The notes beneath the pieces are model-generated. The model was not told where the DNA came from, did no database searches, and was given only the letters and a program-made list of their open reading frames with translations. The translations under genes and the position numbers were made by a program. A stretch of DNA of 63,946 bases, counting the filler, from Basidioascus undulatus (taxonomy: Eukaryota): NCBI GenBank assembly GCA_000826855.1. It is 3 parts of 3 records of this genome, joined end to end, with 100 filler letters (N's around TTAATTAATTAA, not from the genome) between each part and the next. Parts side by side here need not be neighbours in the genome. Positions count along the whole stretch, not along the records: positions 43,287 to 63,946 come from JTLS01000362.1; 2 more parts are not named here. One strand, written 5' to 3'. This document shows, piece after piece, positions 21,603-55,599 of the stretch. How positions within the stretch are numbered: the first letter of the stretch is position 1; every line of letters begins with the position of its first letter.

Positions 21603-21702
21603 NNNNNNNNNNNNNNNNNNNNNNNNNNNNNNNNNNNNNNNNNNNNTTAATTAATTAANNNNNNNNNNNNNNNNNNNNNNNNNNNNNNNNNNNNNNNNNN
21701 NN
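21603..21702. other. Assembly gap spacer (44 N + TTAATTAATTAA + 44 N)
   Basis: Exactly 100 bp with a six-frame-stop linker. Identical structure at 43187-43286. Confidence 0.97.
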
Positions 21703-43186: not shown

Positions 43187-43286
43187 NNNNNNNNNNNNNN
43201 NNNNNNNNNNNNNNNNNNNNNNNNNNNNNNTTAATTAATTAANNNNNNNNNNNNNNNNNNNNNNNNNNNNNNNNNNNNNNNNNNNN
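43187..43286. other. Assembly gap spacer (44 N + TTAATTAATTAA + 44 N)
   Basis: Identical 100-bp artificial structure to 21603-21702. Confidence 0.97.
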
Positions 43287-49871: not shown

Positions 49872-50001
49872 TAGCAGCAATGTCCATTTGAGCAGCTTAA
49901 TTCTTTATAAATTCACTCGCACAACCACCAGCGACTGCACAAACGAAAGTCGCTCAGACGCAGTGTCTATATAATGGCGCTGAAGTATCGACCACCATCT
50001 T

Positions 50002-51357
50002 CTAAGCAGTCTCCGCACTCTTCGCCGCATCCTCCACCCGCTTCTTCTCCTCCTCGTCCTTCCGCTTGGCATCCTCGGTCTCAGCCTGCGTGCGCAAACG
50101 CCCGTGCTCCCTGCGCTCCTCGCGCTCGCTATATCGGTCGTCGAGCAGCGCCTTGTGCGGGAGGAGGAGGATCGTCGTCTTCACCAGCTCCTCGCACACA
50201 TCGACGAGTCGGTCGCGATTCGAGGACGGCATGAGGCGGTCCGAGGCAGTATATTGCGTCCAGGCTTTGGGAATCTGCGGAAAACACAGCGTGAGCAACG
50301 GAAGAAAAGGGGGCTAAATCGTGTAGACGATACGGACGGATGATTGATTAGGGATTGTCCCTAATTGCAAGAGAGGGGTAATGTGAGAATGGGTTTAAGA
50401 GGAAAGTCATGCGACGCACACATCCGCATCCAGCGGCCCAGGATGCGCAGCGAGTTGACAGTGTTGAACGACTGGCTGCCTCCGTTCTGGAAAGGCGGGT
50501 TGTCATAAGACTGCGTTCCACTACGACTCTTTTCTAAAAATTTACTACTTGGGCAATACCCAGAGTACGACCCTGGGTCGGGCGCACCGAGCCCGTCGAC
50601 AACGGAATCCAGTCGACTGCAACGGAACGTGAGGGTAGTCAGGGACGACCGCTCTTAAGCCAGAGCAGGATCGAGCTTACTCTGGTTCTTGAAAACCGCC
50701 GTCAAGTTACCATGTTGTCTATGTGGAACGCCAGGGCATCACAGTCAGCCCAGCGGATCAATCTTGAAAAGGGCTGAAATACGCACTCGGGCGAGCACCA
50801 AAAGTGACCATCGCTCCATTCGCTGAGCGCGCGCAGCTCCTGCACCTTCTCATGCTTCTCCGACACGCCGTCCTTAACCGGCAGTCCGGTCGGATCGAAC
50901 AACCGAACATCGGCGCCCAGCCGGGTGAGAATGCGCGATGCCTCGTAGGCGGTGAGGCGCGAGAAGGACCTGCACGAAAATTGTAAAGCGCGTCAGCGGG
51001 GTCTGGGAGCCACGGGATGAAGAGAGATCGCAAAGCTCACCGCTCTCTCAACGACCCATAAAGCACGAGCAGCCTAATCCTCCTCGGCAGCAACGCCTCC
51101 GCCATACCCCTGACCGTGTCGAGCTCGAGCTCATCCACCCAGTCGCGCTCCTCCTGCGCCTCGGCAGGAGTATGCAAGTGGAAGGGGCGGTACCTCGCCT
51201 CGACTGCCTCCTCCGGGAGCGCGGTGACTTCCGTGGCAGTGCGTGGTGCGGCGGGGAGTGAAGAGACCATGCGGAACGTTGCTGTTGCGGTTATCGTGGC
51301 GGCCGAGCAGGTGAAGGTACGATTTAGGATGGAAGAAGCGGCGCGGGTGGAAAGCAT
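50002..51357 (-). CDS. arsH: Arsenical resistance protein ArsH (NADPH-dependent FMN reductase family), multi-exon
   Basis: [36 protein letters not shown]...[80 protein letters not shown]. Confidence 0.95.
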
Positions 51358-51789
51358 TGACGAAGGCCTCTGCTTCGCTTTCGCTTTCTGAGGTGTAAGA
51401 GTTCAAGGGGGGATGGGTCTGTGCATGCAAGTTTCTTTCTCCTGATCCCTGTACGTCAGCGACGATGACGAGGAGGACCAGAACCGGCCAAGCCGCCCTT
51501 ATCAATTGGTTATCAAGCTGCTGCATATAGACATTTCAAATTACATTGCTTGCGACAAAGAGCGACAAATCTAGCTCTGAGCATTTGCAATTCAGCGCCA
51601 GATCTTCACTCATCACGCACACCGGAGCAGCGTAGAGTCGAACGCGGAGAAGCACACTGCCAGAGTGTTGATGCAAAATTGTTCTCCATTGCGACTCCTT
51701 GCGACTCCAGCACTACATGCTCAGACTGCAATCTTAACATCCAGGCAGTTCGACGACATGCAAGAGGGTTGATATAGCGCTCAACGAAA

Positions 51790-52438
51790 CTACAGTTTGG
51801 ACGTGAGCTGCTCGTCGCCCCCGAACGCGGCAACCCAACCCTTGATCCCACCCTCCAAGATCACGCCCGACGTCTGCCCATCCAGCCCAGCCTTTTCCAC
51901 GGCCTCCTGGTACCATCCGGCAGAACGAACGCCCCGACCGCCTGCAGAGCTACAGCGGGACAAGGCACATTTATCGTCAGCATGGGATCAAACAAGAGAC
52001 GGGGTGCCAGGAGCGAAACGAACCAGCTGTTGCAATGGAAGACGACCAGGGGGTATCTCGACAGCAGAGGAACAACACCCGACAGAGTCGGGTATAGGCT
52101 GTGCGCGGGAAGGTTGATGGCGCCGCGGACGAAGTGGTTCTGGGGGACAAGTCAGCGGTCAGTACGGTAAGCGTGCTGCCGTGCGTATCGTGAAAGAAGC
52201 TGGAGCTGCTTACCTCAAAATCTGTCCTACGAACGTCCACTACGAGAACGTCCTTCCCACCCGCACCATTTTGCAATTTCTGCGCGAGCTCCTGCGGGGT
52301 GATTGACCCCACAGGGGCCTTTAGCGCCGGCGCAGGGAAGGCGGCGTGCCAGGGGGTTGTGGACTGCTGCTCGGCCACTGTTGAGTAGAGCGCGCCAGTC
52401 AGCAGGCGCCTCGCTGTTGCCGGGTAGATCGTGAGCAT
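51790..52438 (-). CDS. Cdc25/rhodanese-fold arsenate reductase-like protein (Acr2/Ych1/Ibp1 family), three exons
   Basis: PWHAAFPAP, VLVVDVRRTDFE, FVRGAINLPAHSLYPTL, VVFHCNSCSAGGRGVRSAGWYQ, ILEGGIKGW. Located between arsH and ACR3. Confidence 0.85.
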
Positions 52439-52749
52439 GATGGAACGTGATCAACTTGTTAAAAACAAATTCTCGTGGATGAAGAGTGTTGGAGGAGGAC
52501 AAGATGCGCTGAGCACATCATCCTCCTCAACGCTGCCGGCATGGGCCAAGTCCGGTGCCGATCTGCGGGATCTTCGCAATTTCAAATTGACCACTCAGCC
52601 TCGCCGCTCATTTCAAGTTCGCGTGGTGCTCCTGGCTGGAATCTCCGGTCGACGAGGATGGCGGTCTTTCCAACGCTTAATCAGAGCAGCTTTTGTTACT
52701 CGAACCACCACCATCGCATCCCGTCGTCCCCTGTTCTGAACCCCAGACG
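52439..52749. promoter_or_regulatory. Bidirectional promoter region between the ACR2-like gene and ACR3
   Basis: 311 bp between divergent ATGs. Contains the near-palindrome CAATTTCAAATTG (52577-52589) and ATTTCAAGTT (52610-52619). Confidence 0.6.
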
Positions 52750-54845
52750 ATGCCCTGCGCGTGCGACACCAAGGCCGACGCGCCTTCCTCCCTCAGCGCC
52801 TCCGCCGGCACTTCCGCCACCAGCGAGAAGCAGCAACTCCATGACGAGACCCCCGCATACCTCTTTCATCCGGGGTGCAAGATGAGCCAGGATTGCGACT
52901 TCTGCGAGGGGCTCGGGGAGATGACCAACGAGGAGAAGGTGGATGACGTGCTCAAGGCTTCCTGTGCGTCTGGCTTCTCTTTTCTCGGTGTCTCAGAAGG
53001 AGCTGAGGATGGCGTGAAAACAGCACTCTTCAAGAACTTGAGCTTCCTGGACCGCTACCTTGCCATCTTCGTGCTGCTGGCGATGATCATTGGGGTGGTG
53101 ATAGGCGTTTACGCGGTACGTCCAAGGCTCCCACCTTCGCCGCCTTCCGCGCTGGATGTTCACATTCATTGGGATGGTAGGAGGATGGTGTGCGTCGTGC
53201 GTTCCAGGGAACTGCAACGTGGGAGGGCGTCTCCATTCGTGAGTTGGTGTTTGGAATACTGTGAACGGGGATCTGACTGACCTCTATCTGGCTGCAGCAA
53301 TCCTCATCGGGCTGCTTGTTATGATGTGGCCCGCTCTGGCCAAGGTGCGTAATCAAGAACCACTTACGACCTATATTGTCCCACAAAGTCTCACACACAT
53401 TCTCCCCCAGGTCCAATGGGAGCGCCTTCCGGAGCTCTTCAAGTCCCGCGCGCTCTGGTTCCACCTCGGCATCTCCTTCGTGCTCAATTGGATCGTAGCG
53501 CCGTTCATCATGCTCGGTTTGGCCTGGGCCACGCTGCCCGAGGCAAGCATGGAGCGCGAGCGCAAGGGCGTCCTGCTTGTTGGTGTCGGTGCGTCCCTGT
53601 GCACGCGTGCGTTCTCGACGATCTTGCTGACAGTTGCGCGACTTGGTCAGCCCGATGCATTGGTAGGGAGGCGCTCATAGACACGAAATGTATAAGAAAC
53701 TGATCGTCTCCTCCCTGCAGCCATGGTCCTGATCTGGAATGCCATTAGCCGCGGAGATGGTAATTACTGCGCCATCCTTGTCGTCTTCAACTCGCTCCTC
53801 CAGGTACGACAATTTCACCCATCTCTTTCTCCTTTTCGACTTGCACACGAGACTCATCTTCCCATCCTATTCAGGTCGTTCTCTTCTCGCCCTATGCGGT
53901 TCTATTCCTCAACTACCTGGGCGGCAACCCTGGCTCTGGCTCGCCTGAGCTCCAGCTCGACTACCGCAGCGCGGCCAAAGCAGTCGGAATTGTACGCTCC
54001 ATTCTCATCGCCTCAGCACACGCGCTCACGGCACCGCGTCTCCCCGCAGTACCTCGGCATACCGCTCGCCGCAGGTGCGCTGACGCGCGTAATCGCCAAG
54101 GCGACGCTCTCGCCCAAGGGCTTCAAGCGCTTCTTCGACTACTTTGGGCCTCTCGCGCTCGTCGGCCTTCTGTATACCATCATCGTCTTGTTCGCGAACC
54201 AGGTCCGTTCCTTGTCTCTTGTTCCTTACACATATGTACTAAAGCAAACTGACACGCAAATCATTCGCAGGGCAAGCGCATTGTCGACAACATCGGCTCG
54301 GTTTTCCGGATTTGCGTCCCGTACGTCTGCCAAGCTCGCGCGGCGTTGTCGCATTCTCACGCTATGCCTCCCCTCAGCCTTATCCTGTACTTCACCATCG
54401 TCTGGACCGTCACATTCTTCGCCTTCTGGCAGTTGTCACGCTCCCGGTGGGGCACCGCCGCGGGCGGGTACGAGAAAGCCGTCACGCAGGCGTTCACTGC
54501 TGGGTCTAACAACGTGCGTCCTACTTTCGCGTCGTCTTCTTATTTCTGAACGCCTATGAACATGTCTCCTCTCGGGCAGTTCGAGCTCGCCATCGCCGTC
54601 GCCATCGCAAGCTTCGGTGCCGAGTCGCCCGAGGTCCTAGCAGCAACGTGAGTTAACCGTTGACCGTTTTCTGAGTTAGCTAGTGATTTGACGATTATCT
54701 ATGATCTGATCACCTTCCACCTTGCAGGCTCGGCCCGCTCATCGAGGTACCCGTCTTGCTCGCGCTCAGCTACGTAGCGCTCTACCTCCGCTCCAAGATG
54801 CGGTGGACACAGGCGGCCAAGACGGACGCCATAATTTCTGTTTAG
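52750..54845 (+). CDS. ACR3: Arsenite efflux transporter Acr3, multi-exon
   Basis: LSFLDRYLAIFVLLAM, IGLLVMMWP, SFVLNWIVAP, ARCIAMVLIWN, NSLLQ, YLGIPL, LLYTIIVLF, FTAGSNNFELAIAVAIASFG, GPLIEVPVL. Confidence 0.96.
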
Positions 54846-55599
54846 GCTTCGGCCTGATTGCTAGGCCTTTATAGACTTCACGCATGGATGGCTTCTATTG
54901 GAAGCGTTATGTTTTACTGCGGGGCTTCCAACCTACTCTGGACCTCCAACTGCTTCAGGGCAGCAATTGTGAAGTCGTTTATGGCGTGCGTAAGCAGTTT
55001 GTTATTCGGCTTCTGCCGTCCACACAATTTTTCACTGCCATGAAGATGCACTCTCATACGGTTGACTCGCGAGCAAGTTGTGAGCGGAAGCCACCCTCAG
55101 GCCTGGTCCAGTACAGGGCACCACCGAGAAGTCCAATGCCTTGACGCAGACACAGTTTATCAACCGAGAGGTTGCCCTTGTTTACTTCTGGTTCCGCTGC
55201 CGGTGTCCTCCGGCGTAGGCTCTTCCTGCGCAGCATGATTTCGCGAGTGTGAGTGGGTGTGTCATCCCAGCTGTTCCCCCGACGCTAGCCTTTCATCTTA
55301 CTTCGATAATTCATTGAACAGAATGGAGCACTGCTACAGATGGGTTCTGTCGCCAGGTGCCTGTCAAGTGGAACAGAGGCTGCTGCTCCCGCCCCCCCCG
55401 CCTTCCAGGTCAAGGTAGTGTCAGGCAACGTGTTGAACCCCTGGTACAGGAGCCAAACGAGATGCCTCAGTAAAGTCTATTGATCAAAAGGAAGTGAGGA
55501 AAATGGGTTATGTCTGTTTGTGAGTGAGCTGCGTCACTCCTCAGTGCATTGAAGGTTTTCGTGCACGCAGCACGATACATCCCCCGAACTACCCGGAGA

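Follow-up and report, generated by a model that had tools for sequence, protein, structure and literature searches.

The question raised by this locus is whether three neighbouring genes, arsH, an ACR2-like gene for a Cdc25/rhodanese-fold protein and ACR3, work together in arsenic detoxification, and whether they are old residents of the chromosome or recent arrivals. The genes lie at 50002–54845 of a 63,946-nucleotide (nt) stretch of DNA from Basidioascus undulatus (assembly GCA_000826855.1), the whole of which is called the window below. Our answer is that together they probably constitute an arsenic-detoxification cluster of three genes, chromosomal and long resident, in a basidiomycete-type fungus. 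The cluster is a fairly ordinary find, because the trio has already been published for Eurotiales and green algae; the only unusual element is the active-site loop variant of the reductase candidate, along with context evidence linking its rhodanese family to arsenic.

Reading 49950–54900 in three frames on both strands showed that the three genes adjoin one another, and joining exons at GT..AG junctions yielded three complete reading frames. The outer bounds given in the original prediction, which had been made from the sequence alone, coincide with the two outer stop codons: the stop codon of arsH, on the minus strand, ends at position 50002, and that of ACR3, on the plus strand, at position 54845. 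The ACR2-like and ACR3 genes stand head to head, with start codons at 52438 and 52750 and exactly the predicted 311 bp between them (52439–52749, presumably a bidirectional promoter). The arsH gene is separated from the ACR2-like gene by 432 bp (51358–51789, from the ACR2-like stop codon to the first arsH ATG), presumably the arsH promoter. The many host-style introns expected in all three genes were recovered too: six in arsH, two in the ACR2-like gene and eleven in ACR3, all 19 of them GT..AG introns of 57–80 nt. GC content is 0.614 in exons, 0.524 in introns and 0.579 in the window as a whole, which is eukaryotic and intron-rich, with a range of 0.51–0.66 across 2-kb segments. That three consecutive arsenic-family genes should occur among some 25 genes of the window cannot reasonably be put down to chance, a judgement reached by reasoning and not from a computed statistic.

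The arsH gene (51357–50002, minus strand) has seven exons (51357–51041, 50969–50787, 50718–50681, 50616–50546, 50486–50420, 50360–50338 and 50274–50002, the last with a TAG stop codon) and six introns of 59–71 nt; it is predicted to encode an NADPH-dependent FMN reductase, ArsH, of 323 amino acids (aa). The NCBIfam profiles TIGR02690 (for ArsH) and TIGR00832 (for ACR3) were scored exon by exon; the TIGR02690 cut-off of 292 bits is meant for a whole protein. Four arsH exons match TIGR02690 at profile positions 40–99, 114–136, 138–158 and 167–219 (E-values from 2e-23 to 7e-8). These matches are collinear, successive and non-overlapping, and so amount to an ArsH equivalog match along the length of the protein; Pfam FMN_red matches exon 2. 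The spliced models were compared locally with 217 retrieved proteins in near full-length alignments. ArsH was 66–76% identical to its 25 best fungal blastp matches, and 77% identical to homologue P0145 in the tree alignment. Another homologue, P0182, which shares 76% identity with the window model, matched the solved ArsH structures 2q62, 2fzv and 7ple with E-values from 7e-78 to 7e-74 (6.8e-78 for 2q62). Through P0182 the phosphate-binding loop LYGSLR..S.S, at residue 99 of the window protein, aligns with the loop of 2q62. The described function of ArsH is NADPH/FMN-dependent oxidation of trivalent organoarsenicals such as MAs(III) (PMC7826186, PMC11370035).

ACR3 (52750–54845, plus strand), the predicted arsenite efflux permease of 461 aa, has 11 introns and 12 exons (52750–53115, 53181–53238, 53298–53344, 53411–53588, 53651–53662, 53721–53803, 53875–53991, 54050–54202, 54271–54320, 54378–54513, 54580–54647 and 54728–54845). 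Six of its exons match TIGR00832 collinearly at 1–25, 60–113, 119–145, 182–233, 251–287 and 288–309, pieces of the open reading frame (ORF) match Pfam SBF, and the spliced product is 63–73% identical to basidiomycete ACR3 over near full length. The diagnostic features of ACR3 are a P/R-C-T/I-AMV cysteine in transmembrane segment 4 (TM4), a glutamate in TM9/10 and ten transmembrane domains (PMC12860867). In the window protein R-C-I-A-M-V occupies residues 218–223, with Cys219 as the metalloid-binding cysteine of TM4; the conserved TM9/10 glutamate is present in PLIEVPV, at about residue 429; and a crude Kyte–Doolittle scan resolved ten separate hydrophobic segments, from residue 104 to residue 437. 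A sequence search with the ACR3 homologue P0021 at E ≤ 0.001 found no solved structure. Because the exons of both genes fall in collinear order on the NCBIfam models and the spliced products share 63–77% identity with fungal homologues, membership of the two in the ArsH and ACR3 families is secure.

Exon 5 of ACR3 (53651–53662, plus strand) is a 12-nt micro-exon, flanked by introns of 62 and 58 nt, that encodes the R-C-I of R-C-I-A-M-V. A micro-exon that carries the catalytic cysteine is easily overlooked by automatic gene callers; the Dentipellis homologue P0024 has 16 additional residues at exactly the corresponding point, apparently a mis-called exon. For intron 1, a 92-nt version was rejected, as it drops 27 nt of exon 2 and with them the peptide EDGVRRAFQ seen in 18 aligned homologues; the acceptor at 53180|53181 gives a 65-nt intron and restores the peptide. 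Ahead of TM1, positions 52861–52914 (plus strand; LFHPGCKMSQDCDFCEGL, residues 38–55) encode a cytosolic cysteine motif, LFxPxC...(D/N/E)C(D/E)FCxGL. The first ATG must be used because this conserved motif precedes the second methionine. In the alignment, the motif is kept in homologue P0034 and in ACR3 of Rhizoctonia, Ceratobasidium, Dacryopinax, Serendipita and Tulasnella. It might serve in metalloid sensing or in regulation. The available portion of the paper on Hebeloma ACR3 does not mention an N-terminal cysteine motif (PMC12860867).

The third gene is the ACR2-like one (52438–51790, minus strand), with three exons (52438–52214, 52139–52024 and 51949–51790) and two introns of 74 nt each; its predicted product is a Cdc25/Ych1-type single-domain rhodanese of 166 aa. 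The start codon is pinned by an in-frame stop four codons upstream of the ATG. A search with exon 1 brought up 20 longer proteins, every one of which is rhodanese-like, and all 19 with a named source come from basidiomycetes; homologues include proteins of Pterulicium, Mycena, Roridomyces, Ceratobasidium, Rhodotorula, Rhodosporidiobolus and Sporobolomyces. The spliced model is 45–61% identical to its homologues, three of which (P0001, P0002 and P0010) match Pfam Rhodanese. The Cdc25-like single-domain rhodanese fold was established by proxy, through these homologues. An AlphaFold2 model of P0002, made from a 20-sequence alignment, had a predicted local distance difference test score of 90.6. 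A Foldseek search of the PDB with this model ranked yeast Ygr203w/Ych1 first and second (3.5e-9 and 2.3e-8), followed by the Leishmania As/Sb reductase 2j6p (3.8e-7) and then by generic rhodaneses and Cdc25A. When a profile of the 20 homologues was run against the PDB, 16 of the 17 matches were Cdc25-type rhodaneses and one was noise; the scores were 3.8e-11 for Ych1, about 1e-7 for Cdc25A/B, 1.4e-7 for Leishmania major LmACR2 and 1.4e-3 for Arabidopsis 1t3k.

The active-site loop of the window protein reads H110-C111-N-S-C114-S-A-G-G-R119-G120, that is HC-X2-C-X4-R (C-X7-R), and the loop of P0002 is identical. Its coding region (51931–52037, minus strand) is split by intron 2 (52023–51950), which divides the C114 codon as TG|C. 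The splice choice at intron 2 is fixed because homologues carry the same long loop; alternative donors and acceptors that would restore CX5R were rejected, as they broke the frame or lacked GT/AG. HMMER alignment to Ych1 and Cdc25 places a two-residue insertion in the window loop. Among the 20 closest homologues the long loop with a second cysteine occurs in 14 and CX5R in six, and both forms are found within Mycena and again within Rhodosporidiobolus. A family profile search of 1.84 billion cluster representatives returned 1994 relatives at E ≤ 1e-3, and the best 150 of these comprise 93 with CX5R, 11 with CX2CX4R and 46 with other forms or fragments. An N-terminal WHAAFP motif, outside the profile region that aligns with Ych1, is invariant in the window protein and its closest homologues. 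Hence, of the three families named in the original prediction, ArsH, ACR3 and the Cdc25/rhodanese fold were borne out; for the reductase the fold and subfamily are right and the defining HC(X)5R loop is altered. Because of this loop, arsenate reductase activity can be assigned to the protein as a candidate function only.

Both the arsH and the ACR2-like products may carry N-terminal extensions. A second arsH ATG at 51270 would give a protein of 294 aa, and most homologues start at that position; the upstream in-frame ATG adds 29 aa (51270–51357). The ACR2-like protein extends by about 27 aa (52358–52438) beyond the start used by most of its homologues. The two extensions are rich in S, T, A and R and poor in acidic residues, a composition reminiscent of organelle-targeting presequences.

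Is the ACR2-like protein an arsenate reductase at all? The alternative that survives best takes ArsH and ACR3 as genuine and the rhodanese as a Ych1/Ibp1-type phosphatase, or a sulfurtransferase, without a role in arsenate reduction; its adjacency to ACR3 would then be incidental or a matter of promoter sharing only. We consider this unlikely, though by no means negligible. Several observations weigh against the reductase assignment. The HC(X)5R loop that defines Acr2/Cdc25 is absent from the protein; counted from the second cysteine, C-S-A-G-G-R is a six-residue C-X4-R spacing, and such spacing is typical of sulfurtransferase rhodaneses. The three window exons on their own have no Pfam or NCBIfam match. 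The nearest solved relative, Ygr203w, is deposited as a protein tyrosine phosphatase of the rhodanese family and not as an arsenate reductase, and no family member among those looked up is named arsenate reductase by its source. The family is pan-fungal, from chytrids to Agaricomycetes, and is annotated only as rhodanese-like; since its range includes chytrids, Taphrina-type yeasts and Orbilia, its role may be broader than arsenic. Finally, the rhodanese was found near ACR3 in just one of five other species compared, Ceratobasidium.

Genomic context speaks for the reductase assignment. In the window the gene is paired divergently with ACR3 across the 311-bp region. In Ceratobasidium sp. AG-I, the rhodanese KAF8598527 lies on one 197,183-bp contig together with two ACR3 copies, KAF8598525 and KAF8598523, whose accession numbers are 2 and 4 away; accession order is taken here as gene order, in keeping with usual GenBank practice. 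Six of the eight longer relatives tested from the profile search (P0250, P0255, P0261, P0281, P0295 and P0319) consist of an N-terminal S-adenosylmethionine (SAM) methyltransferase fused to an ACR2-like rhodanese. For five of these the source is a named Agaricomycete: Pisolithus microcarpus, Panaeolus cyanescens, Pluteus cervinus, Astraeus odoratus and Mycena olivaceomarginata. The best NCBIfam match of the methyltransferase parts is arsenite methyltransferase NF008823 (E-values from 6e-20 to 6e-69); all scores are under its 263-bit cut-off (the best is 232.6), a further point on the opposing side. Even if some fusions are gene-model artefacts, adjacency to an ArsM-like gene is still implied. 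In such fusions the substrate of the rhodanese domain might be pentavalent methylated intermediates instead of arsenate. The placing of a Leishmania As/Sb reductase third in the fold search and at 1.4e-7 by profile, and the retention of CX5R in 93 of the 150 best family representatives, also argue for a reductase. Since the closest relatives of solved structure are Ych1, Cdc25 and LmACR2, and since ACR3 linkage (here and in Ceratobasidium) and ArsM-like fusions come in addition, we retain the reading of the gene as a putative arsenate reductase.

In the three-gene detoxification cluster that we propose, arsenate would be reduced to arsenite by the ACR2-like Cdc25-fold rhodanese, with Cys111 as the likely nucleophile and Arg119 as the loop arginine. 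Arsenite would then be expelled by the ACR3 antiporter, in which the R-C-I-AMV cysteine and the TM9/10 glutamate are kept. ArsH, an NADPH:FMN oxidoreductase, would oxidise trivalent methylated and aromatic arsenicals to less toxic pentavalent forms, as its bacterial counterparts do. The ACR2-like and ACR3 genes would be transcribed divergently from their common 311-bp promoter, and arsH, behind the ACR2-like gene on the same strand, from its own 432-bp upstream region.

How long the cluster has been in place was judged from trees and from its surroundings. The ArsH tree (quick IQ-TREE run, LG+G4) had 144 rows: the window protein, 67 of 77 matches (those of 200–360 aa, which excludes 10) and 76 of 80 bacterial ORFs (after removal of 4 partial ones). 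The 80 bacterial loci (L001–L080) had been gathered with a profile of 19 fungal ArsH proteins and with fungal-derived peptide patterns. The window protein, all 46 named fungal rows and 18 further rows form one clade with a Shimodaira–Hasegawa-like approximate likelihood ratio test (SH-aLRT) support of 99. Within it Mucoromycota come first, then Ascomycota, then Flammula and then a Pucciniomycotina group that contains the window protein (95). A single fungal clade that follows the phyla argues that ArsH was not recently transferred from bacteria. The neighbouring bacterial group is mostly Myxococcota, and its join to the fungal clade is unsupported (SH-aLRT 35). Of the 51 bacterial rows that lie closest to the fungi, 45 belong to Myxococcota (Polyangiaceae, Kofleriaceae, Haliangiales), a nearness that may be sampling bias given the fungal-derived patterns used to select loci and the SH-aLRT of 35.

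The ACR3 tree was built from the window protein, 55 of 120 listed matches picked for their species names, five further rows and three bacterial outgroups. It places the window protein inside a basidiomycete-only clade (SH-aLRT 100) and outside the Pucciniomycotina subclade, whereas ArsH places the window within Pucciniomycotina. The genome is basidiomycete-type. This tree divides the ACR3 proteins of basidiomycetes between two clades that are well separated. One is limited to Agaricomycetes (Coprinopsis, Mycena, Pholiota and others); the second (SH-aLRT 100, stem 0.7) unites Cantharellales, Sebacinales, Dacrymycetes, Armillaria, Pucciniomycotina and the window. Their separation suggests an old duplication.

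The flanks were scanned with Pfam on stop-to-stop ORFs, of at least 80–85 aa in the whole window and of at least 45 aa at 47.5–50 kb and 54.85–59.25 kb. Upstream matches are GH9, tRNA methyltransferase, CENP-C, ERG2, SDR, anthranilate synthase, PPPDE, RNase PH, ubiquitin-L40, F-box, DAP3, WD40 and DUF7598; downstream there is a DEAD-box helicase. No transposase or recombinase match was found among the scanned ORFs. These data bear on a second alternative, in which the cluster is recently acquired mobile cargo, brought in by a Starship-like element or by a bacterial transfer later 'intronised'. The same core trio is indeed carried by Eurotiales Starships (PMC12256816; bioRxiv 10.1101/2020.03.06.981548), the window ArsH is bacterial-like, with 53–68% identity to those bacterial ArsH loci whose matches span most of the query, and the trio is not clustered in the eight Pucciniomycotina species compared. 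Yet the cluster has housekeeping genes on both sides, 19 short host-type introns and a composition in line with the window, its ArsH sits in a fungal clade that mirrors phylum order and its ACR3 in a basidiomycete-only clade; recent acquisition is thus very improbable, and the genes look vertically inherited. The original prediction, whose proposed phylogenetic check was run here for ArsH and ACR3, claimed long residence in place of a recent bacterial transfer, and this claim is upheld by the ArsH clade, the introns and the flanks.

Linkage in other species was judged from locus tags, contigs and accession order, a weak substitute for synteny, and covers only proteins present in the match lists. 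Within that scope arsH was found next to ACR3 or the rhodanese gene in none of eight Pucciniomycotina species. It is not adjacent to ACR3 in Rhodotorula paludigena, R. araucariae, Rhodosporidiobolus ruineniae, R. azoricus and R. microsporus (5 of 5; in Rhodotorula paludigena the two genes share a contig, 125 locus tags apart), nor to the rhodanese gene in R. nylandii, Sporobolomyces salmoneus and R. toruloides (3 of 3). Beside the Ceratobasidium case, rhodanese and ACR3 are 161–170 accessions apart in Mycena vulgaris and on different contigs in M. rosella, M. latifolia and M. crocata; the Mycena ACR3 genes fall in the other ACR3 clade than that of the window. The cluster is not widely conserved, and this tells against our interpretation.

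A third alternative, that the genes became neighbours by fortuitous juxtaposition in one lineage and are neither co-regulated nor selected as a unit, would fit the eight species without clustered arsH and the statistical weakness of the shared promoter motif described below, but we give it hardly any credence, as three consecutive arsenic-family genes within 4.8 kb are by our reasoning very unlikely by chance, and the same trio is clustered independently in Eurotiales and green algae, a recurrence that argues for selection for linkage.

With the cluster read as a functional unit, arsenic co-regulation of the three genes is expected, by a route other than Yap8 and a Y8RE-type element. A 10-mer, ATTTCAAATT, is present both in the 311 bp between the divergent genes and in the 432 bp upstream of arsH, and the divergent region also contains a one-base variant of it. 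The combined pattern ATTTCAARTT occurs three times in the 63,946 bp against 0.12 expected, always on the plus strand and always in these two regions (51533–51542 in the arsH spacer, 52579–52588 and 52610–52619 in the divergent region). Two points lessen its weight: the pattern was derived post hoc from these sites, and in 30 of 200 shuffles a 10-mer is shared as well; we accordingly dropped the shared 10-mer as proof of co-regulation, and treat ATTTCAARTT as a possible shared cis-element, a lead and not evidence. A search of the two promoter regions for Yap-type sites and palindromes turned up only two 8-bp palindromes without evident meaning. Of the 12 window matches to the yeast Y8RE (TGATTAATAATCA, at most three mismatches), none lies within 50002–54845.

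The closest precedent in layout is the S. cerevisiae cluster ARR1(YAP8)-ARR2(ACR2)-ARR3(ACR3), in which ACR2 and ACR3 are divergently transcribed from a shared promoter with a Y8RE (PMC6545440). A Cdc25-fold reductase gene divergent from ACR3 within a three-gene arsenic cluster is common to both, so that the echo of the yeast arrangement noted in the original prediction stands. Unlike in yeast, the third gene here is arsH and not a bZIP regulator, the cluster has no Y8RE-like site, the reductase loop is HC-X2-C-X4-R instead of HC(X)5R and the three genes are intron-rich. The earlier remark that neither a Yap8/ARR1 regulator nor arsM is visible in the window agrees with the Pfam scans of window ORFs, which gave no bZIP, SAM methyltransferase/arsM, Pho80-type cyclin or ArsR match, although short bZIP exons could escape such scans.

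That arsenic clusters are known from ascomycetes, as had also been claimed, is confirmed by the Eurotiales Starships. Hephaestus of Paecilomyces carries arsH, arsC, arsB, a Pho80-like cyclin gene and arsM, and in Paecilomyces variotii deletion of the region leads to arsenate sensitivity (bioRxiv 10.1101/2020.03.06.981548). A 2025 survey describes arsH, arsC and arsB/ARR3 as the core of Eurotiales Starship arsenic clusters (PMC12256816). The same core of arsH, reductase and ARR3/arsB is found here within 4.8 kb; the structural type of the Starship 'arsC' is not specified in the available portions of these papers. The Starship clusters reside on giant mobile elements, often with arsM, a Pho80-like cyclin and a bZIP gene, whereas the window cluster sits among housekeeping genes in a basidiomycete-type genome, where no such accessories were detected by the ORF scans; with its flanks and without a recombinase or transposase Pfam match, it does not have a mobile-element location. 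A neighbourhood of three genes, ArsB/ACR3-ArsH-ArsC, is described for green algae, with the Synechocystis arsBHC operon as its model, and the same paper notes that ArsH homologues exist in fungi (PMC7826186). This is likewise a eukaryotic trio of pump, ArsH and reductase; the algal reductases are closer to various bacterial ArsC proteins, whereas the window candidate is a eukaryotic Cdc25/Ych1-type rhodanese. The cluster also differs from a bacterial ars operon, in which the genes are co-directional and polycistronic and are controlled by an ArsR repressor: its genes are on both strands, with separate upstream regions, 19 spliceosomal-type introns and no ArsR-like match.

At the level of single proteins, Ygr203w/Ych1 (3fs5, 3f4a) and LmACR2 (2j6p) are the nearest solved structures of the reductase candidate (fold ranks 1–3) and have the HC...RG loop position in common with it; a difference is the two-residue loop insertion with a second cysteine, found together with WHAAFP in the window protein and in 14 of the 20 homologues closest to it. 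Two Hebeloma ACR3 genes, HbACR3 and HsACR3, were functionally characterised in 2026 (PMC12860867). Their products resemble the window ACR3 in the ten transmembrane domains, the R/P-C-T/I-AMV cysteine and the TM9/10 glutamate; the window protein belongs to the second basidiomycete clade, with a Cys-rich N-terminus, in a tree sample without Hebeloma proteins. The terms 'arsH', 'cluster', 'neighbo' and 'synten' appear nowhere in the available text of that paper. Homologues of arsH and acr3 were reported in 47.6% and 85.3%, respectively, of the fungal species examined in a 2024 survey (PMC11370035). Our literature searches brought up no account of such a trio as a cluster from Basidiomycota; the supplements of the Starship papers could bear on this point.

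Two further features of the window lie outside the cluster. Directly downstream of ACR3, at about 56.7–58.1 kb (plus strand), there are Pro/Ser-rich open frames of 277, 176 and 149 aa, which have no Pfam match and are not recognisably arsenic-related. Runs of 44 N at 21603–21646 and 21659–21702, and at 43187–43230 and 43243–43286, form two pairs with 12 bases between the members of each, and are unrelated to the cluster.

A bolder proposal can be built on the same data. The ACR2-like proteins would be an overlooked pan-fungal family of arsenate reductases, recognisable by WHAAFP...F[HY]C...GRG, annotated as no more than 'rhodanese-like' and with ArsM-like fusions in several Agaricomycetes. HC-X2-C-X4-R would mark a distinct subclass, in which the in-loop second cysteine acts as resolving thiol through an intramolecular disulfide and the electron donor shifts from glutathione/glutaredoxin to a thioredoxin type. 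The cluster would be under a non-Yap8 regulon acting via ATTTCAARTT. Taken as one joint claim this is a speculative reading, and we would expect it to fail in at least one part.

In the reading we prefer, that of a long-resident detoxification cluster, the trio of pump, reductase and ArsH is extended to a basidiomycete-type genome, having been reported before from ascomycete Starships and green algae. It would be a third, seemingly independent clustering of the same three functions, and as such is useful for arguments on selection-driven linkage in eukaryotes. Arsenic handling by basidiomycetes is relevant to mushroom food safety and to mycoremediation. The loop variant with a second cysteine is an easy target for a biochemical test, and the context evidence, ACR3 pairing and ArsM-like fusions, suggests that a large fungal family known only as 'rhodanese-like' may act in arsenic metabolism.

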